A DNA stretch of 64,000 bases. It comes from Staphylococcus phage Twort. The first letter of the stretch is position 1. Each line of letters begins with the position of its first letter. This document shows positions 1 through 60,104 of this stretch, piece after piece. The notes under the pieces are model-generated. The model made no database searches. It saw only the letters and a list, made by a program, of their open reading frames with translations, and had not been told where the DNA came from. The position numbers were made by a program, and so were the translations under genes. Location of the stretch: the sequence record NC_007021.1; one strand, 5' to 3'.

Positions 1-47
1 ATACACAGACAGTGGGAACCAACCGTGCTAAATATTTAATTTAATTA

Positions 48-75
48 TTGACAAAGTAACAAGATATGATATAAT
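48..75 (+). promoter_or_regulatory. Sigma-A-like promoter TTGACA-16-TGaTATAAT inside the intron, upstream of the endonuclease ORF
   Basis: ttgaca 48-53, tgatataat 67-75. Confidence 0.4.
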
Positions 76-199
76 TAAACTAAGTTAAAAGCCTAACGAC
101 TAAATTTCTAGGTAACTTACAAAAAGGTGTAAGTGAGAACTAGATAAAAATTACTTAACATGAAAACACTACCATAAAATAACAGATAAGGAGGGGAGT

Positions 200-1165
200 A
201 CAACGACTAAAAAGAAAACCCATGAAGAATTTAAAAGTGAGTTAGATTATAAATTTAATAATGAATTTATTCTTTTAAGTAATTATAATGGTATAAATTC
301 ACGTATTAAAGTAAGACATAAACACTGTGGATACGAATTTGAACCTATAGCTAAATATTTATTAAGGGACGGAAAATGTAAAAGATGTTCAGATAACAAG
401 AAAGGTAAAAAAAGAAGAAAAACACATGAACAATTTTTAAAAGAAGTACAAGAAATTCACGGTAATAATTATCAAGTTTTAACTAAATATAAAACTAGTC
501 ATGATAAAGTAAAAGTTAAGCATTTATCTTGTGGTTCGGAGTATAATATTAGACCAGATTCATTATTAAGAGGCAGTCAATGTAAGACTTGTCTTAATAT
601 TAAGTTATCTAAGGATAACTTAAAGACAACAAAAGAGTATAAAAAAGAAATAGAATATATAACTCAAGGGGAATATATTCTTATAGGAGAATACACAGGA
701 GTTAAAAATAAGGTAAAGGTTAGACATAATTTATGTGGTAACGAGTACTTAGTTTATCCTTTTATGTTTTATCGAGGAAGAAGATGTCCTAAATGCAATT
801 ATTCTAGAGGTGAGAGATTAGTAGAGGTTGTTTTGAAATCCCTAAATATTGATTTTGAACCTCAGAAAAAATTTGAAGGATTAAAAAATATAAACCTATT
901 ATCTTATGATTTTTACTTACCTGAATATAATGTCTTGATTGAGTATCAAGGACAACAACATTATGAACCTGTAGAGCTTTTTGGAGGAGAAGATTACTTT
1001 TTAAAACAACAAAAAAATGATAAAATTAAAAAGGAATTTTCTAAAAACAACAATATTTATTTATTAGAAATACCTTATACTAAGTATACTTTTGATAGTG
1101 TTAAAGAGGAAATAGAAGTAATGTTAAGTAATGTAAAGCAAGGGACTACTAACCAAAAGAAGTAG
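200..1165 (+). CDS. Intron-encoded endonuclease: three ~45-aa Cys-rich zinc-ribbon-like repeats plus a C-terminal Vsr/DUF559-like PD-(D/E)XK nuclease domain; start codon unclear
   Basis: Frame 2 is open from 164 to the stop at 1165. The repeats ..KV(R/K)H..CG.E(Y/F)..P......G.C..C occur three times. C-terminal D..(n)..IEYQGQQH matches the Vsr/DUF559 IEvDG..H signature. RBS AAGGAGGGG at 188-196. No in-frame ATG/GTG/TTG before 764. Confidence 0.6.
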   Translation, partial: TTTKKKTHEEFKSELDYKFNNEFILLSNYNGINSRIKVRHKHCGYEFEPIAKYLLRDGKCKRCSDNKKGKKRRKTHEQFLKEVQEIHGNNYQVLTKYKTSHDKVKVKHLSCGSEYNIRPDSLLRGSQCKTCLNIKLSKDNLKTTKEYKKEIEYITQGEYILIGEYTGVKNKVKVRHNLCGNEYLVYPFMFYRGRRCPKCNYSRGERLVEVVLKSLNIDFEPQKKFEGLKNINLLSYDFYLPEYNVLIEYQGQQHYEPVELFGGEDYFLKQQKNDKIKKEFSKNNNIYLLEIPYTKYTFDSVKEEIEVMLSNVKQGTTNQKK

Positions 1166-1286
1166 TCATGATATAGTCTAAACCCTTTAAAATACTAGGA
1201 AACTAGGGGTAGTAATTGGGAGATGTCATTTTCCAAATAGAACAAAAAATAATTCTGGTATACGAGGATACTATATTTCACAAATG

Positions 1287-2144
1287 AATGCTGTCTGGAT
1301 TTCAGCTGACCAACTTGTAGAAAAAGAACTTAATACCGATTCTAAACAAGCATTTTACAATTATGTACTGGGTATGCCTTATGAAGATTTAAAAATGCGT
1401 GTATTACCAGAAGACATATTTGAAAACAAATCTAAAATTGCAAAAGAACAATTATTTGATAGAGATAGATATAAGTATATATCCTGTAGTGTTGACTGGG
1501 GTAATTTCCACTGGTGCTGTGTACATGGTATGACAGAAGATGGTCATGTAGACTTAATACGACTATTTAATGTAAAGAAAAATAGCAGACCAGATTTAGT
1601 AGAGGCAGACTTAGAAAGAATTATATTAGAGTTTTCTAAATATGACCCCGATATTATTATAGCTGACAACGGAGATTCAGGAAATAACGTTCTTAAATTA
1701 ATCAATTTCTTTGGTAGGGAACGAGTATTTGGATGTACGTATAAATCTAGTCCACGTTCTTCAGGACAATTATATGCACAATTTAATGAAAACACAAACA
1801 CCGTAACCGTAGACAAATTAATGCACAATAAGAACTATATACAGGGACTAAAAACAGGTAGAATAAGTGTGTACCAAAAACAAGATGAAGAACTTAAAAC
1901 ATACTTAAAACATTGGCAAAATGTTTTAATCATGGATGAAGAAGATGAGAAAACAGGAGAAATGTATCAAGTAATTAAGCGTAAAGGAGACGACCATTAC
2001 GCTCAGAGTGCAACGATAGGATATATTGGACTCACTCGTATTAAAGAATTACTTGAAACTTCTAAAGGAACATCTTTTGACTCTACATTTGTTTCTACTG
2101 ATTATAATCAAGGTGATGGAAATACATATTACCTTAACGATTAA
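1287..2144 (+). CDS. terL: Terminase large subunit, 3' exon (nuclease domain)
   Basis: RNase-H-like nuclease motifs (..IIADNGDSG.., ..GDDHYAQS..) typical of TerL C-termini. Frame is open back to 1191, consistent with a spliced exon rather than an independent gene. Confidence 0.75.
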   Translation, partial: NAVWISADQLVEKELNTDSKQAFYNYVLGMPYEDLKMRVLPEDIFENKSKIAKEQLFDRDRYKYISCSVDWGNFHWCCVHGMTEDGHVDLIRLFNVKKNSRPDLVEADLERIILEFSKYDPDIIIADNGDSGNNVLKLINFFGRERVFGCTYKSSPRSSGQLYAQFNENTNTVTVDKLMHNKNYIQGLKTGRISVYQKQDEELKTYLKHWQNVLIMDEEDEKTGEMYQVIKRKGDDHYAQSATIGYIGLTRIKELLETSKGTSFDSTFVSTDYNQGDGNTYYLND

Positions 2145-3587: not shown

Positions 3588-4577
3588 GTGAAAGGGAAAA
3601 GTTTAATGAATAAAAAGTTAGACGTAAAAGAAGTAGCAACTGTAATTATCATAATACTAATAGGTTTTTCTATACTATTTAATCTTTTCTTTTTATCTCA
3701 ATTAGATAAAGAAAAAGAAGAGAAAGATAAATACAAAAGATTAGTTAATATTTACCAAAAAGACAATAAGATAGATACTAAAGACAAAAAAGAATATGTT
3801 AAAAGGTTAAATGATGCAGAAGAGGAACTTGATAAAGTAAAACGGGAAACTAATTATAAAGGTTACAACGATAAGTCTGATAAAGGCAAAGAGGAAATAG
3901 ATAAAGAACTTAAAGAGGCTATTTTCGGTAAACTTAGAGACGATGAGATAATTGTTAAAACTAAGATTGAATACACAGATAAGGTTAAATCACCTACTAT
4001 AGAAGTAGATAATGAGGGTGTAGGGAAAGTATTATTGCCTATAGAAACAAAACCTAAGAATGATAATACTGAAGTAAAAATAGTTGATTCTACTAACACA
4101 CCAACTACTACACCACCAGTAACAAGTGCACCAGAGGTCAATAATACACCAGTCCCCCAACAACCTCCTAGTGTATCAGATAATAACGGTAATACAGTGC
4201 CTACTGTACCTAGTGATGGTGGAAATTTAACACCAAATGTTCCAAGTAACCCAACACCACCTGTTGAAGAACCACCTATTGTGTTGCCTCCACCAGTAGA
4301 AGACCCTATAAAACCTACGGAGCCAGACAGACCTACAGAACCTTCTCAACCAGAAGAACCAAATAGTCCTGTAGAACCAGAAGACCCTAACAACCCTGAT
4401 AACCCAAACAACCCTGAGGAGCCTTCTCAACCAGAAGAACCAAGTAATCCTGATAACCCCGATGTTCCTGAAGAAACAAGTAATCCTAGTGAACCTAATA
4501 GTATACCGTGGGCACCACTAGAACCACCTTTGAGTATGCCTTTAGTTCCTCTAGAACCCGCAACACCAATAACATAA
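3588..4577 (+). CDS. membrane-anchored protein with coiled-coil and Pro/Thr/Glu-rich repetitive C-terminus
   Basis: N-terminal TM segment, Lys/Glu-rich middle, PEEPSQPEEPN-type repeats. Confidence 0.5.
   Translation: MKGKSLMNKKLDVKEVATVIIIILIGFSILFNLFFLSQLDKEKEEKDKYKRLVNIYQKDNKIDTKDKKEYVKRLNDAEEELDKVKRETNYKGYNDKSDKGKEEIDKELKEAIFGKLRDDEIIVKTKIEYTDKVKSPTIEVDNEGVGKVLLPIETKPKNDNTEVKIVDSTNTPTTTPPVTSAPEVNNTPVPQQPPSVSDNNGNTVPTVPSDGGNLTPNVPSNPTPPVEEPPIVLPPPVEDPIKPTEPDRPTEPSQPEEPNSPVEPEDPNNPDNPNNPEEPSQPEEPSNPDNPDVPEETSNPSEPNSIPWAPLEPPLSMPLVPLEPATPIT
4338..4450 (+). repeat. Direct coding repeat (~33 nt, two copies 80 nt apart) encoding EPSQPEEP(N/S)..P
   Basis: gaaccttctcaaccagaagaaccaaatagtcct at 4338-4370 versus gagccttctcaaccagaagaaccaagtaatcct at 4418-4450. 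Confidence 0.7.
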
Positions 4578-4585
4578 TTATTACT

Positions 4586-4620
4586 AAAAAAGCATAGGTA
4601 TTAAACCTATGCTTTAATTA
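4586..4620 (+). terminator. Rho-independent terminator
   Basis: aaaaagcataggt..acctatgcttt hairpin followed by a T-rich tail. Confidence 0.55.
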
Positions 4621-4665
4621 TATTATATTAATAAGAGACGCTATTATAGAAAGGATATGTAACTG

Positions 4666-5019
4666 TTGAACTTTGATTTAAATATACTAACTTCTATTTT
4701 AGTTTTAATTATAGGTACTTGTTTACTTACATTAGTAATAACAGAATGTCTAGGTTATACAAAAGAATTTAAATTGTTACATTATGCAATTTATGGTATA
4801 GTAATTATAGGAACTTATTTTTTAACAGAAATGTTTAAAAAAATATCTAGTATAATTAAAGAAGATGTTATTTTATCTGTTCAAAATACAGAAAAATATA
4901 CCGGTTTTAATGACCCAACCTTTATATTCATTATTACAACGATTGGTGCTATTATTGGACTAGGTATTTATTATACTCATAAATATATAAAAGAAATTAA
5001 TTTAAATAAGAAACGGTGA
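4666..5019 (+). CDS. small integral membrane protein (3-4 TM helices)
   Basis: hydrophobic 117-aa ORF. Confidence 0.45.
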   Translation: MNFDLNILTSILVLIIGTCLLTLVITECLGYTKEFKLLHYAIYGIVIIGTYFLTEMFKKISSIIKEDVILSVQNTEKYTGFNDPTFIFIITTIGAIIGLGIYYTHKYIKEINLNKKR

Positions 5020-5027
5020 TGTAGACT

Positions 5028-5408
5028 TTGACCTATGCTAAAGATAAAAAATGGGAAGATGCAAAGACTTTTATAAAACAACAGGGTATGAAAGATAATT
5101 GGATAGAAATAGTAGATTATTATAGGCAAATAGGTGGTACGCACGTTGCTGTATTTATTGCTCTAGAAAAAGAAAAGTATATGATACTAGAAGCAACTAC
5201 TGATAATAGGGTAATATTAGTAGATAAAAATAATAATATTGTTTTAGAAGATTATAATGTGGTTATGGAATCTAAGAAGATGTTTTATTATATAGAACAA
5301 CCCTTTAAACATAAAATAGACTTAAATAGTTCTATAAGTAGTATTACCTACAATAACACAGATACATTAACAATGTACAACCATAAGGATGGTGACACGG
5401 TTGGCTGA
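5028..5408 (+). CDS. hypothetical protein
   Basis: 126-aa ORF immediately upstream of the portal gene. Confidence 0.45.
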   Translation: MTYAKDKKWEDAKTFIKQQGMKDNWIEIVDYYRQIGGTHVAVFIALEKEKYMILEATTDNRVILVDKNNNIVLEDYNVVMESKKMFYYIEQPFKHKIDLNSSISSITYNNTDTLTMYNHKDGDTVG

Positions 5409-16271: not shown

Positions 16272-17563
16272 ATGGCATCTCAAGCTAAACAGACAGTCCA
16301 TACTGGTAATACCGTAATGCTTATGATTAAAGGTAAACCTGTAGGTAGAGCTCAATCAGCGTCTGGTACACGTTCTTACGGTACAGAAGGGGTATATGAG
16401 ATTGGTTCTATCATGCCACAAGAACACGTTTACCTTAAGTATGAAGGTGAATTAACAGTAGAACGTCTACGAATGAAAAAAGAGAACTTTGCAAAATTAG
16501 GATATGCTTCTCTTGGTGAAGAAATCCTTAAGAAAGATATTATTGACATTGTTGTTATTGACAACTTGACTAAAGAAGTGCTTGTGTCATATCACGGTTG
16601 TAGTGCTAATAACTATGAACTTCGTAGCTTCACATAGTAATATGTGTCGAAAAACTTTTCTAAACAGGGAAGCCTAAGTCTATTAGATATGGTAATCCTG
16701 TGCTAAATCAGATTAATAATCTGTAAATGCCAAACGACTAACTGAAACCTACTTGATAATTCAAGGGGAGTAAGTGTAGAGCCAAGCGGTAGAAGTTTTA
16801 AGTAATTATTATGTAAATCTTCTTTAAATCGAAAAGAAAAGAGTCCTTTTTTAGGATTGTGATATAGTCTGAACATATATGGAAACATATAGCAGTTCCT
16901 AGAGAACGGGCAGTGAGTAGCGACCACTGTTGAACATAATGGATGAAGCATGGAACACTAATGAAATAACTACTGAAAGCATAAATAATTGTGCCTTTAT
17001 ACAGTAATGTATATCGAAAAATCCTCTAATTCAGGGAACACCTAAACAAACTAAGATGTAGGCAATCCTGAGCTAAGCTCTTAGTAATAAGAGAAAGTGC
17101 AACGACTATTCCGATAGGAAGTAGGGTCAAGTGACTCGAAATGGGGATTACCCTTCTAGGGTAGTGATATAGTCTGAACATATATGGAAACATATAGAAG
17201 GATAGGAGTAACGAACCTATTCGTAACATAATTGAACTTTTAGTTATTTATCAGCATAAAATTATCTTGTGCCTTTACACAGTAATGTGTATTGAAAACT
17301 CCTTTAATTCATGGGAAATCTTAATTAAGACAATCATGAGCCAAGCCTAGCAATAGGAAGGTGCAACGACTAGAGAAAGGGTAGCTTACTATTATAGGTA
17401 GTAAGTGAGAACCGAGTATCGTACGCTCAAGTGAGTGGAAATGGGGAGTGTCCTAGAGTAACGACTAGGATAATGATATAGTCTGAACATATATGGAAAC
17501 ATATAGAAGGATAGGAGTAACGAACCTATTCGTAACATAATTGCAGATAAAGCTTCACGATAG
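16272..17563 (+). CDS. tail tube protein gene split by three group I introns; ~139 aa when spliced
   Basis: Inferred exons: 16272-16607, 16942-16982 (41 nt), 17235-17257 (23 nt), 17544-17563. Exon 1 ORF (112 aa) follows the sheath gene. Splice sites are inferred from alignment of the intron copies, the U-before-5'SS and G-before-3'SS rules, and frame continuity (84 nt = 28 codons to TAG at 17561-17563). Confidence 0.55.
16608..16941 (+). mobile_element. Group I intron 1 of the tail-tube gene (ORF-less)
   Basis: P/Q/R/S-like core elements; 3' end ..GUUGAACAUAAUG. Confidence 0.55.
16983..17234 (+). mobile_element. Group I intron 2 of the tail-tube gene (ORF-less)
   Basis: Starts aaataattgtgcc..; R ..gcaacgacta..; 3' 75 nt identical to intron 3, ending ..cgtaacataattg. 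Confidence 0.55.
17258..17543 (+). mobile_element. Group I intron 3 of the tail-tube gene (ORF-less)
   Basis: Starts aaaattatcttgtgcc..; same conserved 3' core; ends ..cgtaacataattg. Confidence 0.55.
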
Positions 17564-20236: not shown

Positions 20237-20689
20237 TTGACAGAAGAAAATAAAAACGTAGAAGAAGTAAAAAAGGAAACACCTAAGGAAGAATCTAAAA
20301 AGTTAACAAAAGAAGAAATTGATAAACTTAAATATAAACAACAAGAAGAACGTGAGGAAGTTATTAATAAAGTTATTCGTGGTGTAAACGATATTTATGA
20401 AAAAGAATTTAAGTTTGATAACTTAGATGAGCCTGTAACATTTAAAATTAGATACCCTAATGCTTTAGAACAAGGTCAAATTTTAAGTGTACGTTCTTCT
20501 TACTTTAATGGTACAGATATGTACCAATCACAAGAAATTATTTATGCGTTTCATATGTTAGCTACATTAAATGTAGTAGGTATTGATGTACCTAAGGAAT
20601 TTAGAAATGCAGAGGAGATTTACCGACTAGAGCCATTACTAGAGCTTTACTACGATTGGGTGGCTTGGTTAAATACCTTTCGTTACTAG
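20237..20689 (+). CDS. putative tail assembly chaperone (G-like)
   Basis: TTG start with RBS AAAGGAAAGGAAG; located two genes upstream of the tape-measure gene. Confidence 0.45.
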   Translation: MTEENKNVEEVKKETPKEESKKLTKEEIDKLKYKQQEEREEVINKVIRGVNDIYEKEFKFDNLDEPVTFKIRYPNALEQGQILSVRSSYFNGTDMYQSQEIIYAFHMLATLNVVGIDVPKEFRNAEEIYRLEPLLELYYDWVAWLNTFRY

Positions 20690-20762
20690 AGGTGACGTTG
20701 ATGAGGTAGGGGGAATAGAGCGCCTCGTAAAAGAAAATTACTCTAGGAACTTATGGACTATT

Positions 20763-21221
20763 ATGCGTGAGTTTAATGTACTCCCTACAGACGAAAGGTT
20801 TAGAAATCTAACTGACCTTCAAATAGAATTTATATTATATAATATGGTACAAGATAATAAAGAACAAGAACTTATTGCTAAAGGTAAGAGATTTGATAGT
20901 CATTTTGAAGATGATGACAGGTCTTGGATGGAAGCTGATGAGGAAGACTTTGAAGTTGTACCAGATTATATTGACTTAGAAGATATTAATAAACAAATTG
21001 AAAATAAATTATCTGAAGAAGAAAAACAACGCAGACAAGAACGTTTTGATTCAGATGACCCTGATGAAATGGATAGGGTAGATTTAGTTTTAGAAGAGCA
21101 ACGAAGACGTATAGAAGAACTAGACAGGGAATTAGGAATAACTAGTGATAAACCTGTTGAATATAGTAAGGATACAATTGGTCAAGCCTTAGATGAGCTA
21201 GATGAAGATGATTGGATTTAG
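20763..21221 (+). CDS. acidic protein; possible T-part of a frameshifted chaperone (frame open from 20673)
   Basis: Frame 3 is open 90 nt upstream of its ATG and overlaps the last 5 codons of the 20237 ORF in the +1 frame. Confidence 0.45.
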   Translation: MREFNVLPTDERFRNLTDLQIEFILYNMVQDNKEQELIAKGKRFDSHFEDDDRSWMEADEEDFEVVPDYIDLEDINKQIENKLSEEEKQRRQERFDSDDPDEMDRVDLVLEEQRRRIEELDRELGITSDKPVEYSKDTIGQALDELDEDDWI

Positions 21222-21271: not shown

Positions 21272-24200
21272 ATGCTCAATGATAACTATAGGTTAGTATT
21301 GTCCGCTGATAGTTCTGATTTAGAAAATGGGCTTAAGGCAATACAGGCATATATGGATGCACTAGAGAAGAGTAACATAGATGCACCCTTAGATAAATTT
21401 AATGAAAAGTTAAGACAAATTGCTAAAGAGATAAAAAATGTTCAAAAGATTCAAAAAAGTGTAGAAGGAACTTCTTTTGTTAAAGCTAAAGATATGAATG
21501 AGTTAGTAAACTCATCTAAAAAAGCACACAAAGAAATTAGTGATTTACAAGACGCTTTACAAGATGTTGCTGAAACTGATAAAATAAAAGGGTTCATTGA
21601 CCCCAAGGTTCTTAAGACATTCAGTAGTTTAAATAATGCCCTTAAAGAAACAGGTAACATTGTTGATGAAGTATCAGGAAAGTCTATAGGTGTAGATGCT
21701 GATATTAAACAACGTATGCGTGACATGAAAGAGTTTGGCACACAAACTAAGAAAGCAATGGAACTACAAAAGCAGTTTGATGATATTAGTGCGCATAAAA
21801 AGAACTTATCAGCTACACAAAGACGTGTGAGCGGTACTTTAGATAGAACAAGAAGTACTAATAGAATGACATACATACAAAGTGAGAAAATGAAATCGGA
21901 CTTGTCTGTGCTTGGTAGTAGTAAGCAACGTAAAACACAAGCTGAAAACACAATGAACTCACTTAGAGATGAACAACGTAAAGCTAGACAACAGTATCAA
22001 GACATACAAGGTAGAGCTTCTAGGAATGAAATATCTGAATCAGAACGCAGGAAGTTATCCGCTGAAATACAAAATGAGATTCAGATAAGAAGTAAAGTTA
22101 TTCAAAAATATGAAGAATTATCTAAAGAGTTAGACAAAAGTATAGGTTCATACAATAAAAATAGTTCAGAGTATAGTGGACGTACAGTAGAGGCACGTAG
22201 AGGTAGTTTTGGTAGTCTCGTAGCTGACCGTGCCCCTTCTATAGTTTCACATGCTGTTATGGGGGCATTAGCACCCCTTACAGCTATGTTCTTTAACGGT
22301 CGTTCTATATCACAACAAAATAGACCTAGAAAAATAGCCCTAGGACAACAATTAGGTACTAATATTGATAATGTCGGTAACTACATGAACGAAGGGATGA
22401 AAGAAAAAGGTTTAGGCTACGATAGAGGAGCCACACTAGAAATGGCGCAAGGGGTAGCTAGTGCTACTGGTGTAACAGACCAAAGTAAAGTCAAAGGTAT
22501 GGTAGATGTTTTAGCATCTAGCTCAAGAAGTATGGGACTTAATGATGAAGAAGGATTTAGAAGTACTGTATCCGACATTCAACACACAGGTGTATATAAA
22601 GACGCATCAAGTCTAGGTCAATTTACTGATGCTGTTTACGGAGGAATTAAACAAGCAGGACTAGAAGGTCGAGCAGACGAGCAGATTAAGGCTCTTGGAC
22701 AAATAAGTGAAAGTGTCGGTAGAGGTAAAACTTTAACTGATACAGATATGAACAATATCACCGCTTTTCAATCAACATTAGCAAGCTCTGGAAGTAAAGC
22801 GTTACAAGGGCAACAAGGTGCTGACGTAATGGTTGGTTTAAATGAAGGTATTAAAGGGGCAAATAATGACCCATATCTTCGTAACATGATGGGACTTACT
22901 GATAAGTATGGTGGCGGTGTTGTTGGAATGTATAAATCACAACAACAGCTAGGTAAAGGCCTATCAGACCCAGAAAACTTAACTAGTGGATTAGATAGAA
23001 TTAAAAATAGTGGAGCTTCTAGAGAAGAACAAGAAGCTCACGCATGGGCGTATATGAGAGAACTAAACCCAGAAATATCTACAGAAGCTACTAAAAAAAT
23101 ATATGATTTATATGATAAAGGCAAACTTACTAAAGAAGAATTAAATAAAGCATTATCAGAAGACCAGAAAAAAGGTAAAGAGTCTAAAGACAATAATGCA
23201 AAAGATTACAAAGAATCTCAAGCAGGAAAAGATAACAGAAATGAAGCAAACGCTAACAACACTTCTGAAGATGCTTATGATATGACTGCGGAAATAAGAA
23301 ACTTATCTGGAACGATTACAGGACTAGGTGTAGGTGTTACTGCACTTGCAGGTGCTGTAACTGGTTTAGCAGTAGCAGTTGCTAAATCCGCAGGTATGAT
23401 GGGAGCAGGTCAGTTATTTAAGTGGGGTACAAGTAAATTCCAAAAACCTGGAACTAAAGGAGCACCCACTCCACCAGGAAACCTAACAGGCGGTGGAAAT
23501 AAAGGTGGAGGTTTCTTTGGTAAAGCTAAAGATTTAGGTAAAAGAGCTGTAGGTTGGGATTCCGAAAGAGGTTGGCAAGGAGCTAAAGGTTCTTTTAACG
23601 ACCCATTTAAAGACCAAGTAGGACGAGCTAAAGGTAGTGTCACTGATACAACTAAAAAAGCTAAAAATACAGACTGGAAAGGTAAAGGAAAAGACCTTTG
23701 GGGAACTACTAAAAACTTTGGTCAACGACTTTTTGAATCTGGAAAAGACGTAGGTAAAGGTAGTGTATTTAGTGGTTTAGGTAAAAAAGCTAAAGGACTC
23801 TTTACAAATAAAGGAAATAATGGTATAGTTGCAGGGGGAGCTTCTGCAATGGGTGACGTAGGTAGATTATCTAGAATGGGCGGTCTACTAGGAAAAATAG
23901 CCATGCCATTAGGAGTAGCGGGCTCTTTATTTAATGTAGGCAGTCAGATGAAACAAGGTTCTAGTCTTAATGATGCATTAGTAGGTGAGGCTAGTAACTG
24001 GATTGACCCTCTAGGACTAGGTTATGGTAAGTCTATTACAGGACAGTTTACTGATAAAGCAATGAACGGTAAATCACTTATAGGATGGAATACACCTAAT
24101 GGTTCAGAAGATTTTGGTTTATTAGGAAAAGCATGGAACTCATTATTTGGTGGTAAAGATAGTGAAAATAAAGCAGGTGGCGGTGGAGGCTCTTCAGATA

Positions 24201-25081
24201 CTAATGTATTGAATGGAGCAAAAGTTGATAGAAATAAAAACAAAAAAATGACTGCTGAAATGCTTAGAGAAAAGAACAATAAAACCGAAACAGAAAACCT
24301 TAAAGTATATCGTTCATTGTTAGATAGAGCTGAAAAAGTACTACAAGATGCTAAAGGATTAGATAAAGGAGATTCTGAAGGAGGTTCCTCCGATGATGGT
24401 TCTAGTGCTTCTGATGTAGGAGGAGAAGGAAAACAAAAAATTTGGAATTTCCTTAAGAAGAAAGGATTATCTGACGAGCAAGTAGCAGGTATTATGGGGA
24501 ACTTTGAACAAGAGTCTGGAATGAACCCTACAGCTACTAATCCATCTTCAGGTGCTTATGGTATAGCTCAATGGTTAGGAGGACGTAAAGCAAACTTACA
24601 AGCCTTTGCAAAATCTAAAGGCAAAAAGGCTAGTGATTTAGATGCACAATTAGATTTTCTATGGCATGAGATGCAAGGCTCTGAAAAAGGTAGCTTAGGA
24701 CGATTTAATAAAGCTAAGACTGTAGAAGAAGCTACTAAGTATTGGGCTCAAGATTTTGAGCGTATGGGAGCAGGAGAAGCAATGATGGGCAAACGTGTTT
24801 CTAATGCTAACAAGTACAAGAAAGCATATGCAGGTGGAGGTGGAGGTAACTGGGGTAATCCATTACAACAGTCTTCATTAAGTAACACACCCGTATCATC
24901 ATTTATTCCTAACTCACAAAGTAATAGTTCTTCAGTAAATAACAATAATAGTATTAATATAAATATTAATATAGAGGGTTCAGATAACCCTAAAGATACT
25001 GCTATTGCGGTTGAAGAACGATTAAATAGAACTTTAAGCAGTAACATAGATATATTTACAAATAGACACAGAAGAGTATAA
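21272..25081 (+). CDS. tail tape-measure protein with C-terminal lysozyme / lytic-transglycosylase-like domain
   Basis: 1269 aa: coiled-coil N-terminal half, Gly-rich segments, and a C-terminal ..FEQESGMNPTATNPSSGAYGIAQW.. motif (phage tail lysozyme / SLT-like). Confidence 0.75.
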   Translation: MLNDNYRLVLSADSSDLENGLKAIQAYMDALEKSNIDAPLDKFNEKLRQIAKEIKNVQKIQKSVEGTSFVKAKDMNELVNSSKKAHKEISDLQDALQDVAETDKIKGFIDPKVLKTFSSLNNALKETGNIVDEVSGKSIGVDADIKQRMRDMKEFGTQTKKAMELQKQFDDISAHKKNLSATQRRVSGTLDRTRSTNRMTYIQSEKMKSDLSVLGSSKQRKTQAENTMNSLRDEQRKARQQYQDIQGRASRNEISESERRKLSAEIQNEIQIRSKVIQKYEELSKELDKSIGSYNKNSSEYSGRTVEARRGSFGSLVADRAPSIVSHAVMGALAPLTAMFFNGRSISQQNRPRKIALGQQLGTNIDNVGNYMNEGMKEKGLGYDRGATLEMAQGVASATGVTDQSKVKGMVDVLASSSRSMGLNDEEGFRSTVSDIQHTGVYKDASSLGQFTDAVYGGIKQAGLEGRADEQIKALGQISESVGRGKTLTDTDMNNITAFQSTLASSGSKALQGQQGADVMVGLNEGIKGANNDPYLRNMMGLTDKYGGGVVGMYKSQQQLGKGLSDPENLTSGLDRIKNSGASREEQEAHAWAYMRELNPEISTEATKKIYDLYDKGKLTKEELNKALSEDQKKGKESKDNNAKDYKESQAGKDNRNEANANNTSEDAYDMTAEIRNLSGTITGLGVGVTALAGAVTGLAVAVAKSAGMMGAGQLFKWGTSKFQKPGTKGAPTPPGNLTGGGNKGGGFFGKAKDLGKRAVGWDSERGWQGAKGSFNDPFKDQVGRAKGSVTDTTKKAKNTDWKGKGKDLWGTTKNFGQRLFESGKDVGKGSVFSGLGKKAKGLFTNKGNNGIVAGGASAMGDVGRLSRMGGLLGKIAMPLGVAGSLFNVGSQMKQGSSLNDALVGEASNWIDPLGLGYGKSITGQFTDKAMNGKSLIGWNTPNGSEDFGLLGKAWNSLFGGKDSENKAGGGGGSSDTNVLNGAKVDRNKNKKMTAEMLREKNNKTETENLKVYRSLLDRAEKVLQDAKGLDKGDSEGGSSDDGSSASDVGGEGKQKIWNFLKKKGLSDEQVAGIMGNFEQESGMNPTATNPSSGAYGIAQWLGGRKANLQAFAKSKGKKASDLDAQLDFLWHEMQGSEKGSLGRFNKAKTVEEATKYWAQDFERMGAGEAMMGKRVSNANKYKKAYAGGGGGNWGNPLQQSSLSNTPVSSFIPNSQSNSSSVNNNNSINININIEGSDNPKDTAIAVEERLNRTLSSNIDIFTNRHRRV

Positions 25082-57622: not shown

Positions 57623-58648
57623 GGAAAACGTGAAGGCTCTGCAGTATGTTATTTAAATATATTCCACCCAGATATTCATGAATTTTTAAGTTCTAAAAAA
57701 ATTAATGCTAGTGATAAAGTAAGATTAGACACATTATCTATTGGTGTAACAATACCAAATAAGTTTATGGAATTACTTAAAGAAGATAAATACTACTATA
57801 CATTTAATGTATATGATGTTAAACAAAAATATGGGTTTACATTAAATGAAATAAACATGTCCGAGTATTATGATATATTTGTGAATGATGATGATATTAG
57901 AAAAGAAAAATATTATACAAGAGATATAATGACTGACATTGCAAGAACACAACTAGAGTCAGGATACCCTTATGTTTTCTACATTGATAACGCAAATGAC
58001 AATCACCCTTTGAAGAAACTAGGTAAAGTTCAAATGTCTAATTTATGCTGTGAGGTGACACAGCTACAAGAAGTATCCGACATATTCCCATATTTACAAT
58101 CACATAATGATACTATTGGGAATGATGTTGTGTGTACGTTAGGTTCATTAAATTTAGTGAATGTTGTAGAAAAAGGATTGCTTAAAGAATCCGTAGATAG
58201 TGGTATTCGTTCGTTATCTAAAGTAACGGATTTAATGAACGTTCCATTTTTACCAAGTGTTCAGAAGGCAAACGATGAGCTACGAGCTATAGGTCTTGGA
58301 GCAATGAACTGGCATGGACTTCTAGCAAAGAATATGCTTAGTTATGGTTCTAGGGAATCTCTAGACATTGCTAATAGTTTATTTAGTGCTATTAGATACT
58401 ACTCTATTAAGTCTAGTATGGAACTAGCTAAAGAAACTGGTAAAGTTTTTAAAGGTTTTAAAGAATCAGAATACTATACTGGAGAAGTGTTTAGTTCATA
58501 TATTCAAAAGTCACATGAACCTAGAACTAAAAAAGCTAAAAAAGTACTAGAAAAGGTATATATCCCTACGGAAGAAGACTGGAACTCTTTAAGCAAAGAT
58601 GTAAAAGAGTATGGTATGTACAACGGATACTTAAATAATCTTGCACCT
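57623..58648 (+). CDS. nrdE: Ribonucleotide reductase alpha subunit, exon 2
   Basis: GKREGSAVCYLNIFHPDIHEFL (active-site loop) ... ends ..NNLAP. Confidence 0.75.
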
Positions 58649-59735
58649 TATATATTAGGGCGTGTATAAGAATACATGATAACTCTTTCGAATTGCTGGA
58701 ACACCCTTAGAGCCTAATAAACTACAACGTAACTAGAAATGGTAAGCGTGAATGTTTAAAAATTATTGGGATTGGGCAATCAGCATCTAAGATTCTAAAT
58801 AATTATAATTAAAATAAAGTGTAACAAAGGAAGATATATTATAGAGGAGTTATGGAAAGAAATACCTGGGTTTAATTCATACATGATTAGTAATAAAGGT
58901 CAGGTTTACTCAAGAAAAAGAAATAAGATACTAGCTTTACGAACAGATAAAAATGGGTATAAAAGAATATCTATTTTTAACAATGAAGGTAAAAGAATTC
59001 TATTAGGAGTTCATAAGTTAGTTCTCTTAGGTTTTAAAGGTATTAATACTGAAAAGCCTATACCTCACCATAAGAATAATATTAAAGATGATAACAGATT
59101 AGAAAATTTGGAATGGGTTACAGTTAGTGAAAATACCAAGCATGCATATGATATAGGGGCTTTAAAATCACCTAGGAGAGTTACATGTACTCTTTATTAT
59201 AAAGGAGAACCTTTATCATGCTATGACTCGTTGTTTGACTTAGCTAAGGCTTTAAAAGTAAGTAGAAGTGTAATAGAGAGTCCTAGAAATGGTTTGGTGT
59301 TATCTACTTTTGAAGTAAAAAGAGAACCTACAATACAAGGACTACCTTTAAATAAAGAGATATTTGAGCATAGTTTAATTAAGGGCTTGGGTAATCCTCC
59401 TTTAAAAGTGTATAATGAAGATGAAACCTACTACTTTTTAACTTTAATGGACATAAGTAAGTACTTTAATGAATCATACTCTAAAGTACAACGAGGATAT
59501 TATAAAGGTAAGTGGAAAAGTTATATTATAGAACATATTGATTTTTATGAGTATTACAAACAAACACATTAATTATAATTACAAGAATAAAGTTCAACGA
59601 CTATCCCGTTGCTGGGAGTACACTCAAGTGAGTGGAAGTGGAAGAGGTCTTACTTAAGTAAGATGTGATATAGTCTGGACGTATATGGAAACATATAGAA
59701 GGTAAGGAGTAACGAACCTTATCGTAACATAATCG
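58649..59735 (+). mobile_element. Group I intron 2 of nrdE, carrying an HNH endonuclease ORF
   Basis: R ..caacgactatc.. at 59594; S gtgatatagtc at 59660; ends ..cgtaacataatcg; exon junction restores LAP|TQSISY. Confidence 0.65.
58838..59572 (+). CDS. Intron-encoded HNH homing endonuclease (I-HmuI-like); start uncertain (ATT/ATA ~58838-58841, or ATG 58883)
   Basis: N-terminus ..LWKEIPGFNSYMISNKGQVYS.. matches the conserved EWKDIKGYEGHYQVSNTGEVYS start of I-HmuI-type enzymes. HNH motif ..PHHKNNIKDDNRLENLEWVTVSENTKH.. . RBS AAAGGAAG at 58827-58834. Confidence 0.65.
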   Translation: MIEELWKEIPGFNSYMISNKGQVYSRKRNKILALRTDKNGYKRISIFNNEGKRILLGVHKLVLLGFKGINTEKPIPHHKNNIKDDNRLENLEWVTVSENTKHAYDIGALKSPRRVTCTLYYKGEPLSCYDSLFDLAKALKVSRSVIESPRNGLVLSTFEVKREPTIQGLPLNKEIFEHSLIKGLGNPPLKVYNEDETYYFLTLMDISKYFNESYSKVQRGYYKGKWKSYIIEHIDFYEYYKQTH

Positions 59736-60104
59736 ACACAATCCATTTCGTATGTACAAAATGCAACTTCTAGTATTATGCCAGTACCTTCACCTATTGA
59801 AAATAGACGCTATGGTAACATGGACACATACTATCCTATGCCGTTTATGTCACCAATTACACAATTTTTCTACGAGAGTGAAACAGCATATAAATTAGAT
59901 AATAAACGTATTATTAATACAAGTGCGGTGATTCAAAAACACGTAGACCAAGCTATTTCTACTATTCTTTACGTAGAGTCTGAAATACCAACTAATAAAT
60001 TAGTAAGTTTATATTATTATGCTTGGGAAAAAGGTTTAAAATCTTTATACTATACCCGTTCACAAACATTAAAAGTTATTGAGTGTGAATCTTGTAGTGT
60101 ATAA
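59736..60104 (+). CDS. nrdE: Ribonucleotide reductase alpha subunit, exon 3
   Basis: TQSISYVQNATSSIMPV.. and ..SLYYTRS.. (radical-transfer Tyr pair); C-terminal CESC. Confidence 0.75.
   Translation, partial: TQSISYVQNATSSIMPVPSPIENRRYGNMDTYYPMPFMSPITQFFYESETAYKLDNKRIINTSAVIQKHVDQAISTILYVESEIPTNKLVSLYYYAWEKGLKSLYYTRSQTLKVIECESCSV

Follow-up and report, generated by a model that had tools for sequence, protein, structure and literature searches.

Staphylococcus phage Twort carries, in a group I intron of its terminase large-subunit gene (terL), an open reading frame (ORF) for an endonuclease-like protein that is preceded by a strong Shine-Dalgarno (SD) sequence, and no canonical start codon is found near that sequence. 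The question raised by this locus is where translation of the ORF begins and whether the missing start reflects a conserved design or a loss. The locus was analyzed in a stretch of 64,000 nucleotides of the record NC_007021.1 (hereafter, the window), and all of its features described below lie on the + strand. A preliminary description, made from the letters alone, had proposed that translation starts on a non-canonical codon and that this is a built-in way to keep endonuclease expression very low. In our analysis, the most probable explanation, to which we assign a probability of roughly 60%, is that this is an I-MsaI-like endonuclease gene whose ATG was converted to ACG by a recent T-to-C change at position 204 (T204C). 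Its expression would be strongly down-tuned and possibly silent, and this state would be lineage-specific, not a conserved design.

Start region and origin of the ACG codon

The ORF consists of 320 codons and a TAG stop codon (203..1165), and its frame is open from position 164, with a TGA at 161–163 just before it, to the TAG at 1163–1165. The SD sequence AAGGAGGGG is located at 188..196; the in-frame codons past it are ACA ACG ACT AAA AAG (200–214), and the first in-frame ATG, GTG, or TTG is the ATG at 764. All these elements were read from the sequence as the preliminary description had given them. However, it had placed the ATG at 764 inside the second repeat of the protein, whereas the codon is that of residue 188, where the third Zn-ribbon repeat ends. 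The GGAGG core of the SD ends at 194, leaving 8 nt to codon 203, a value inside the range of SD-to-start spacings observed in 19 genes of the window (6–12 nt, mostly 6–9). In addition, the hexamer GGGAGT (194–199) fits GGGNGT, which has been used as the search pattern for the “extended SD” in S. aureus (PMC13009471). No RNA structure sequestering the SD/start region in the style of I-TevI was detected (z = 0.82). The lack of a canonical start near the SD was borne out; only the near-cognate ACG at 203..205, 8 nt from the strong SD, is sensibly placed.

We compared the length of the open frame head across all 76 frames of the window that span 100 codons or more. The terminase-intron ORF has 200 codons between the upstream stop and its first canonical start, with a median of 6 for the set; the next cases on the + strand were terL exon 2 (31), a tail-chaperone frameshift ORF (30), and I-TwoI (28), the endonuclease of an nrdE intron. 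This test replaced a count of GGAGG motifs without a following start, which was uninformative because most such motifs fall inside genes. Between positions 206 and 763, 186 codons pass without an in-frame ATG, GTG, or TTG, the probability of which is ~0.008 from the codon usage of the window.

Nine relatives could be aligned at the start: vB_SpsM-DH2 (DH2), which is the closest complete genome in the phage collection searched, SPJ2, BE06, BE24, and five metagenomic or SRA contigs (L005–L009). The ACG of Twort aligns with ATG in DH2, SPJ2, L005, and L008/L009, and with TTG in BE06, BE24, L006, and L007. These aligned codons are the annotated or called starts of proteins of 315–320 aa, and the SD stands at a constant distance from the start in all relatives aligned. 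The non-canonical codon is therefore not conserved among the orthologues and occurs in Twort alone. Position 204 is occupied by T in DH2 and in six outgroups (7/7 comparison sequences), so that, on the alignment, T204C is unambiguously placed as a derived change on the Twort branch. The ORFs of Twort and DH2 are 98.5% identical, and T204C is their sole difference across window positions 130–330 (201 nt). SPJ2 and BE24 possess an internal Met (KTMNDKV) in the region matching 206–763, which indicates that the absence of Met there is specific to the Twort/DH2 lineage. Exact-pattern scans of IMG/VR and metagenome contigs for the ACG variant or the ATG variant returned no match, and no independent ACG-bearing sequence is known.

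The comparison of identity values provided a relative date for this change. Between Twort and DH2, the intron is 98–100% identical outside the promoter loop, whereas the adjoining exon is 85.5% and the backbone 82.7% identical; the Twort intron is also 87–91% identical to copies in other genera. Such a contrast is a signature of horizontal mobility, and it suggests that the element was recently moved or exchanged between the phages and that the start mutation is younger still. Judged from these alignments, the missing start in Twort is a recent one-base down-mutation of a normal ATG, with ACG left as the only plausible initiation codon.

The encoded protein

For the 320-aa product, 1159 homologues were found; the closest share 92%, 87%, and 74% identity, each with a length of 319–320 aa and a query coverage of 99–100%. 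Its layout comprises three Zn-ribbon repeats of the treble-clef type, followed at the C-terminus by a predicted nuclease domain that is Vsr-like and of the PD-(D/E)XK class. The Cys residues 42/59/62, 127/130, and 178/195/198 are invariant, as are D236, E247, G250, and H253 in the C-terminal part, where the motif D...IEYQGxQH is located. The protein matched PHROG 559 (E=2e-79), and this family and PHROG 9084 are described as endonuclease or homing endonuclease. I-MsaI shares 34% identity with the Twort protein over 309 residues (E=4e-43). The Pfam families CapR and DUF4379 were matched by relatives; the Twort protein itself had no significant match in Pfam and no sequence match in the PDB. The AlphaFold2 model (pLDDT 89.5) gave its best PDB matches with Vsr (1cw0/1vsr), PvuRts1I, AbaSI, and TnsA, with a probability of up to 1.0 and an E-value of only ~0.01. 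The dN/dS values against the relatives were 0.10–0.17. By its domain layout and homology, the Twort ORF is a member of the I-MsaI-like family, which combines Zn-ribbon repeats with a predicted Vsr-like nuclease. In the literature, the function of I-MsaI is listed as unknown, and no family member with demonstrated nuclease activity was found there.

Predicted expression of the Twort allele

A sigma-70-type promoter is located inside the intron at 48..75 (TTGACA, 16 nt, TG-n-TATAAT); it agrees with the consensus at 12/12 positions and has an extended -10 TG. A promoter is kept at the same place in BE24/BE06/SEP1, SPJ2, and DH2. The homologous promoter upstream of I-MsaI in the kayvirus 515A1, p87, is early, has a 16-bp spacer, and was confirmed by RNA-seq (PMC7698491). 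Between Twort and DH2, the promoter loop (32–90) has an identity of only 62%, with indels; a good -35/-10 pair is present in both versions.

The Twort gene would thus be transcribed from a consensus promoter of its own and would offer the ribosome a strong, unstructured SD. Ribosomes bound to this SD would place codon 203 in the P site, where the middle base of ACG fails to pair with the initiator tRNA anticodon. The only initiation left to the recruited ribosomes would be that at ACG, with an efficiency of roughly 1% of AUG or less. In E. coli, an ACG start gives a full-length product with an N-terminal Met, belongs to the class of 0.1–1% of AUG, and is ~10x weaker than AUA/AUU (10.1101/063800). 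In S. aureus, ~10% of AUG is reached by AUA and AUU when they follow an extended SD, and ACG was not among the codons tested (PMC13009471). Since ACG falls in the weak class of E. coli, the Twort allele would supply trace amounts of the full-length endonuclease at most. The non-canonical start put forward in the preliminary description is therefore narrowed to one codon, at the position of the relatives' ATG or TTG; initiation at it, the level of this initiation, and its effect on fitness are what we infer from the comparisons.

T204C would most simply represent an early step toward losing endonuclease expression after fixation of the intron. The last ~13 codons of the ORF double as the ribozyme core (P7/P3'/P8), and translation of the ORF on the pre-mRNA would compete with ribozyme folding and with splicing of the essential terminase mRNA. 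For this reason, loss of the start may have been tolerated or mildly favored, and for the phage the lower translation could be neutral or even beneficial. With the exception of the start codon, the gene is intact in Twort, including the promoter, SD, 320-codon ORF, and ribozyme core. Other stages of loss were found in the same intron family, namely a frameshift in DH2, a nonsense mutation in a paralogue of SPJ2, and an ORF-less intron in SEP1 that still has the promoter.

Two of these copies deserve a separate description. In DH2 (L003), a homopolymer at ~2900, which corresponds to window positions 407–413, differs by one base (A8 vs A7), which causes a frameshift; as the record carries the mark UNVERIFIED, either a sequencing error or a real second inactivation route may be involved. 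In SPJ2 (L001), a paralogous copy of the endonuclease gene is located in a further terL intron (4379–5323); it is split by an in-frame stop at 5147–5149, and its two parts carry separate annotations as “group I intron protein” CDSs.

Start loss or selected weak initiation

Several observations weigh against a simple start loss. The Twort ORF bears no second lesion over its 320 codons. Its branch has accumulated 3 nonsynonymous and 4 synonymous changes, with fewer nonsynonymous ones than expected under neutrality (P=0.025, a test with little power after T204C), which indicates that selection acted on the gene over most of the Twort branch, if not over its whole length. Neither relaxed selection nor further lesions were found on the Twort copy. 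The remaining points come from the family as a whole, in which start-codon lesions in otherwise intact ORFs are far commoner than neutral decay predicts and a non-canonical start has been kept in two lineages that are under purifying selection; to judge from the latter, a weak start can be functional and favored by selection.

The family was surveyed by a census of tblastn-anchored loci from IMG/VR, GTDB genomes, and metagenomes that was independent of gene calls, with a family hidden Markov model being compared with all stop-to-stop fragments. It yielded 151 copies that are intact and full length (132 clusters at 95% identity); at the homologous N-terminus, no canonical start is present in 8 of them, which represent at least 5 lineages. 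The 8 copies are Twort (ACG), L041 and L198 (ATT), L192 (ATT/ATA), L033 (GTA or ATC), and L077, L104, and L183 (out-of-frame ATG). Only 6–7 copies with internal nonsense or frameshift mutations were found in the same samples, whereas the neutral first-hit mutational target of the Twort ORF comprises 7 start-loss and 219 nonsense paths, with indels uncounted. Because the samples kept the best tblastn hits among 518 + 574 positive loci, which favors intact ORFs, the ratio of start to internal lesions is an upper-bound signal; the two conserved non-canonical lineages are unaffected by this bias.

The first of these lineages is formed by L041 (376–400) and L198 (476–500), in which an SD is followed by TTTTTTT and ATT at the homologous N-terminus (I-K/R-K-K-T-H...). 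Both ORFs are intact, and the leaders are otherwise unrelated. With an amino acid identity of 47%, a dS of 1.19, and a dN/dS of 0.39 between the two copies, the arrangement looks like a conserved AUU start. The second lineage comprises L077 (380–410), L104 (580–610), and L183 (480–510), which share an identical 70-nt leader of the intron core and the arrangement AAGGAG-TTATAGA-ATG-C-GG.... Here, an ideally SD-spaced ATG is out of frame and its frame stops after 6 codons; the long ORF (303–431 codons) is in the ATG+1 frame and contains no in-frame ATG, GTG, or TTG over 11–62 residues of homologous sequence. The values for L183/L104 (dS 1.04, dN/dS 0.087) indicate that the ORF, although it lacks an in-frame canonical start, is clearly expressed; the dN/dS for L077/L104 was 0.38. 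An A-run is present in two of the three copies and absent from L183. Of the single cases, L192 (480–510) reads AGGTGAT-ATAA-ATT-ATA straight after a TAA and has an intact ORF, and L033 (365–400) offers either GGAG, 8 nt, and GTA or AAAGGAG, 10 nt, and ATC, its first ATG lying 44 residues into the homologous region.

It is possible, though in our opinion doubtful, that the ACG of Twort is a selected, working attenuator, through which homing is served by a small supply of endonuclease and both toxicity and disturbance of splicing are kept low. The intact ORF and the pattern of purifying selection on the Twort branch would be expected in that case, and the strong SD is of the “extended” type that accompanies the AUA/AUU starts of S. 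aureus with ~10% of AUG (PMC13009471). I-TwoI of the same phage is annotated with ATA, several family members use the weaker TTG, and the 8/151 intact copies without a canonical start, together with the ATT kept in L041/L198 and the arrangement kept in L077/L104/L183, point in the same direction. However, ACG is found in Twort only, its close relatives, DH2 included, having ATG or TTG; the change is too recent to reveal later selection; and ACG is ~10x weaker than AUA/AUU in E. coli (10.1101/063800). The family sample, moreover, was taken from the best tblastn hits and favors intact ORFs. The proposed built-in low expression is hence only partly supported: weak starts recur in the family and are conserved in two lineages, but the ACG of Twort is a derived, Twort-specific, and recent change. 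To our knowledge, initiation at ACG is not established for any native gene of a bacterium or phage, which also counts against a working attenuator.

A wider proposal, which we likewise consider possible but doubtful, is that non-canonical initiation has been recurrently selected to throttle I-MsaI-like intron endonucleases and I-TwoI, with AUU in L041/L198, AUU/AUA in L192, the arrangement of L077/L104/L183, and ACG in Twort as its instances. If this were true, the ACG of Twort would function as a start, and with it a native ACG initiation codon would be documented for the first time in a gene of bacteria or phages.

Alternative start sites and public annotations

The public records of Twort treat the gene in two different ways. 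The 130,706-bp genome calls only the 133-aa product that starts at the ATG 764..766 (YP_238535.1/AAX92391.1), whereas the separately deposited 139,739-bp genome calls QIW89087.1 (328 aa; P0122 reads MTDKEGSTTTKKK...), which starts at the in-frame ATA 179..181, corresponds to the ORF from 179, and contains ...STTTKKK.... In QIW89087.1, codon 203 encodes Thr, and neither genome record has an ATG at this codon. Homology supports codon 203, and both records probably start the gene at the wrong codon.

Translation from the ATA at 179–181 is very unlikely. This near-cognate codon is usable in S. aureus (PMC13009471), the frame is open from 164, and the depositors of the 139,739-bp record chose it. 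However, it lies 7 nt upstream of the SD and has nothing SD-like before it, it is not conserved in the relatives, whose proteins begin at the codon equivalent to 203, and the eight extra residues that it would add (MTDKEGST) are the translated SD. Exclusive use of the ATG at 764, which is the first canonical start and would give a 133-aa protein with the whole Vsr-like domain (YP_238535.1), is just as improbable: no SD precedes it, the gene calls in relatives are full length, and the product would lack all three of the DNA-binding Zn-ribbon repeats, which are conserved and under purifying selection. As for the suggestion that C at 204 is a sequencing or assembly error and the real phage has ATG, which would involve a single base that is T in the nearest relative DH2, we give it almost no credence, because the second Twort record also reads Thr at codon 203, so that two separately deposited genomes fit a non-ATG codon (the call of the 2005 record starting at 764), and a Met-starting version of the protein is absent from a collection of 15 billion proteins.

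Other candidates were considered and rejected. The out-of-frame ATG at 222 and a small upstream ORF at 160 either stand too far from the SD or lack one, and among the relatives DH2 alone shares the ATG at 160. Read-through from exon 1 is blocked by the TGA at 161–163, and the exon-1 frames of the relatives stop earlier. A phage tRNA reading ACG as a start was dismissed, the window containing no tRNA gene.

Intron and ribozyme anatomy

The window begins within the group I intron that splits terL and contains its 3' 1218 nt (1..1218); the remaining 5' part, ~93 nt with P1, precedes the window. DH2 has the same sequence as Twort at window positions 1–31 and 91–202; its 5' splice site is directly after ...AATGGTGTGT, ~93 nt upstream of the window start, and its P1 is formed by GGUGUGU/GCAUACC with a U.G pair. 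The 3' splice site follows G1218 (AATTG|GG), and exon 2 of terL extends over 1219..2144. Joining of the exons gives ...DRWYNGV-W-RCHFPNRTKNNSGIRGYYISQMNAVWISADQLVEK, in agreement with the uninterrupted TerL of phage phiIBB-SEP1 (SEP1); the spliced junction ...DRWYNGV-W-RCHFPNRTKNNSGIRGYY equals the SEP1 sequence. The intron-less terL site is represented by the SEP1 sequence around ...TGGTATAATGGTGTGTGGGAATG....

The ribozyme core overlapped by the 3' end of the ORF (1133..1218) was delimited by alignment with the ORF-less intron of SEP1 and with the I-MsaI intron, and it agrees with the RF00028 alignment of the SEP1 intron. It comprises the core segment GTAAAGCAAGG (1133–1143), the P8 hairpin GACTACT/AGTAGTC (1144–1167), whose 3' strand includes the stop codon TAG (1163–1165), and J8/7-P7' ATGATATAGTCTAAACCC (1168–1185), followed by P9 and the terminal G1218. 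The J8/7 sequence GATATAGTC is present in the Twort terL intron, and compensatory changes in P8 were seen in the alignment with L007 and the kayvirus I-MsaI intron. In the alignment with the SEP1 intron, the Twort ORF and its leader occupy the place of a small hairpin loop after ...GAGAACTAGATAA. The SEP1 intron, which has the same core and has kept the internal promoter, is inserted at a different terL site, SEP1 terL being uninterrupted at the Twort insertion site. Neither the Twort terL intron nor its ORF-less SEP1 relative was detected by Rfam at the gathering threshold; the model RF00028 matched the SEP1 intron with 27 bits (E=5e-5), under the gathering score. By this anatomy, the endonuclease-like ORF is predicted to sit in a group I intron of terL.

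Introns with a near-identical 5' core (86–91% to window positions 1–171) were also found at differing terL sites across genera, namely in phiIBB-SEP1 (L011, 1405–1788 and 2301) and in fRuSau02 (L012, 1700–3115). Elsewhere in the window, three consecutive ORF-less group I introns at 16606–17506 (Rfam 64–101 bits) represent the known three-intron gene of Twort. In addition, an ORF at 20237–20689 is overlapped by a +1 open frame at 20673–21221, which has 30 codons before its first ATG and lies directly upstream of a gene for a 1269-aa tape-measure-like protein (21272–25081). This arrangement (20237–21221) is the usual layout of tail assembly chaperones produced by programmed frameshifting.

Comparison with known systems

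A companion case is present in the same phage. I-TwoI, reportedly described by Landthaler et al. in 2002 as the HNH nicking endonuclease of Twort nrdE intron 2, is encoded at 58841..59572 (+ strand) and has the Pfam domains NUMOD4 and HNH_3. AF485080, the GenBank record of the Twort nrdE/I-TwoI region, matches window positions 58640–59760 with 100% identity and starts the CDS at the ATA at 58841 with AGGA as the ribosome-binding site, 9 nt before it; the first ATG (58883) would cut into the NUMOD4 motif. The preliminary description was thus correct in ascribing the same property to this gene, and the depositors had already recognized it. Like the terL-intron ORF, I-TwoI is an intron-encoded endonuclease without a canonical start at its conserved N-terminus; unlike it, I-TwoI belongs to the NUMOD4 and HNH family and has in ATA a much better initiator than ACG. 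The phage collection contained no close relatives of I-TwoI (all <40% identity), and its ATA therefore could not be polarized.

The closest named counterpart of the Twort protein is I-MsaI of the kayviruses MSA6, fRuSau02, and 515A1. The two systems share the protein architecture, a terL intron with a homologous 5' core, an early intron promoter with a 16-bp spacer, and an ORF that extends into the ribozyme core. However, I-MsaI has a canonical TTG start, and its intron is inserted at a different terL site.

The I-TevI gene of phage T4 has a canonical start, and on early transcripts a hairpin sequesters its ribosome-binding site. It resembles the Twort gene in that an intron endonuclease has its own promoter and its translation is limited owing to the conflict with ribozyme folding and splicing; in Twort, in contrast, the SD is unstructured and the start codon itself is defective. 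The translational control of I-TevI is attributed to Gibb and Edgell (2010) where that work is cited in PMC3984707.

Near-cognate attenuators are represented by infC and pcnB (AUU) in E. coli and by infC, ccpN, and citZ (AUA) and cvfC1 (AUU) in S. aureus. They combine a strong or extended SD, normal spacing, and a one-mismatch codon that lowers the yield, and Twort likewise has an SD at functional spacing followed by a one-mismatch codon where the homologues start. The difference is that the codons of the known attenuators are conserved among orthologues and reach ~10% (S. aureus) or 1–3% (E. coli) of AUG, whereas the ACG of Twort is unconserved and belongs to a weaker class.

The occurrence of intact, start-mutated (Twort), frameshifted (DH2), nonsense (SPJ2 paralogue), and ORF-less (SEP1) versions, along with an intron much more similar between phages than their backbones are, resembles the cycle of gain, decay, and loss of homing endonucleases that Goddard and Burt are said to have set out in 1999; however, no relaxed selection was detected on the Twort copy. 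With regard to the catalytic fold, I-Bth0305I and the EDxHD-type enzymes are phage intron-encoded homing endonucleases with a Vsr-like fold, and the predicted structure of the Twort protein likewise best matches Vsr (1cw0/1vsr). Its motif, D...IEYQGxQH, is not EDxHD, and the N-terminal Zn-ribbon repeats also differ.

Implications

The Twort gene is a fresh example of known phenomena, namely the limited translation or decay of homing endonuclease genes and near-cognate starts. The locus represents a clean natural experiment, in which the promoter, SD, ORF, and ribozyme are intact and only the start codon differs from a relative's version. It is suited to measuring the endonuclease dose needed for homing and the splicing cost of translating an ORF into the ribozyme core. 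The more interesting lead is the family-wide excess of start changes over internal lesions; if this excess survives unbiased sampling, it would mean that weak or unusual initiation in these selfish intron endonuclease genes is selected and is not a product of decay.

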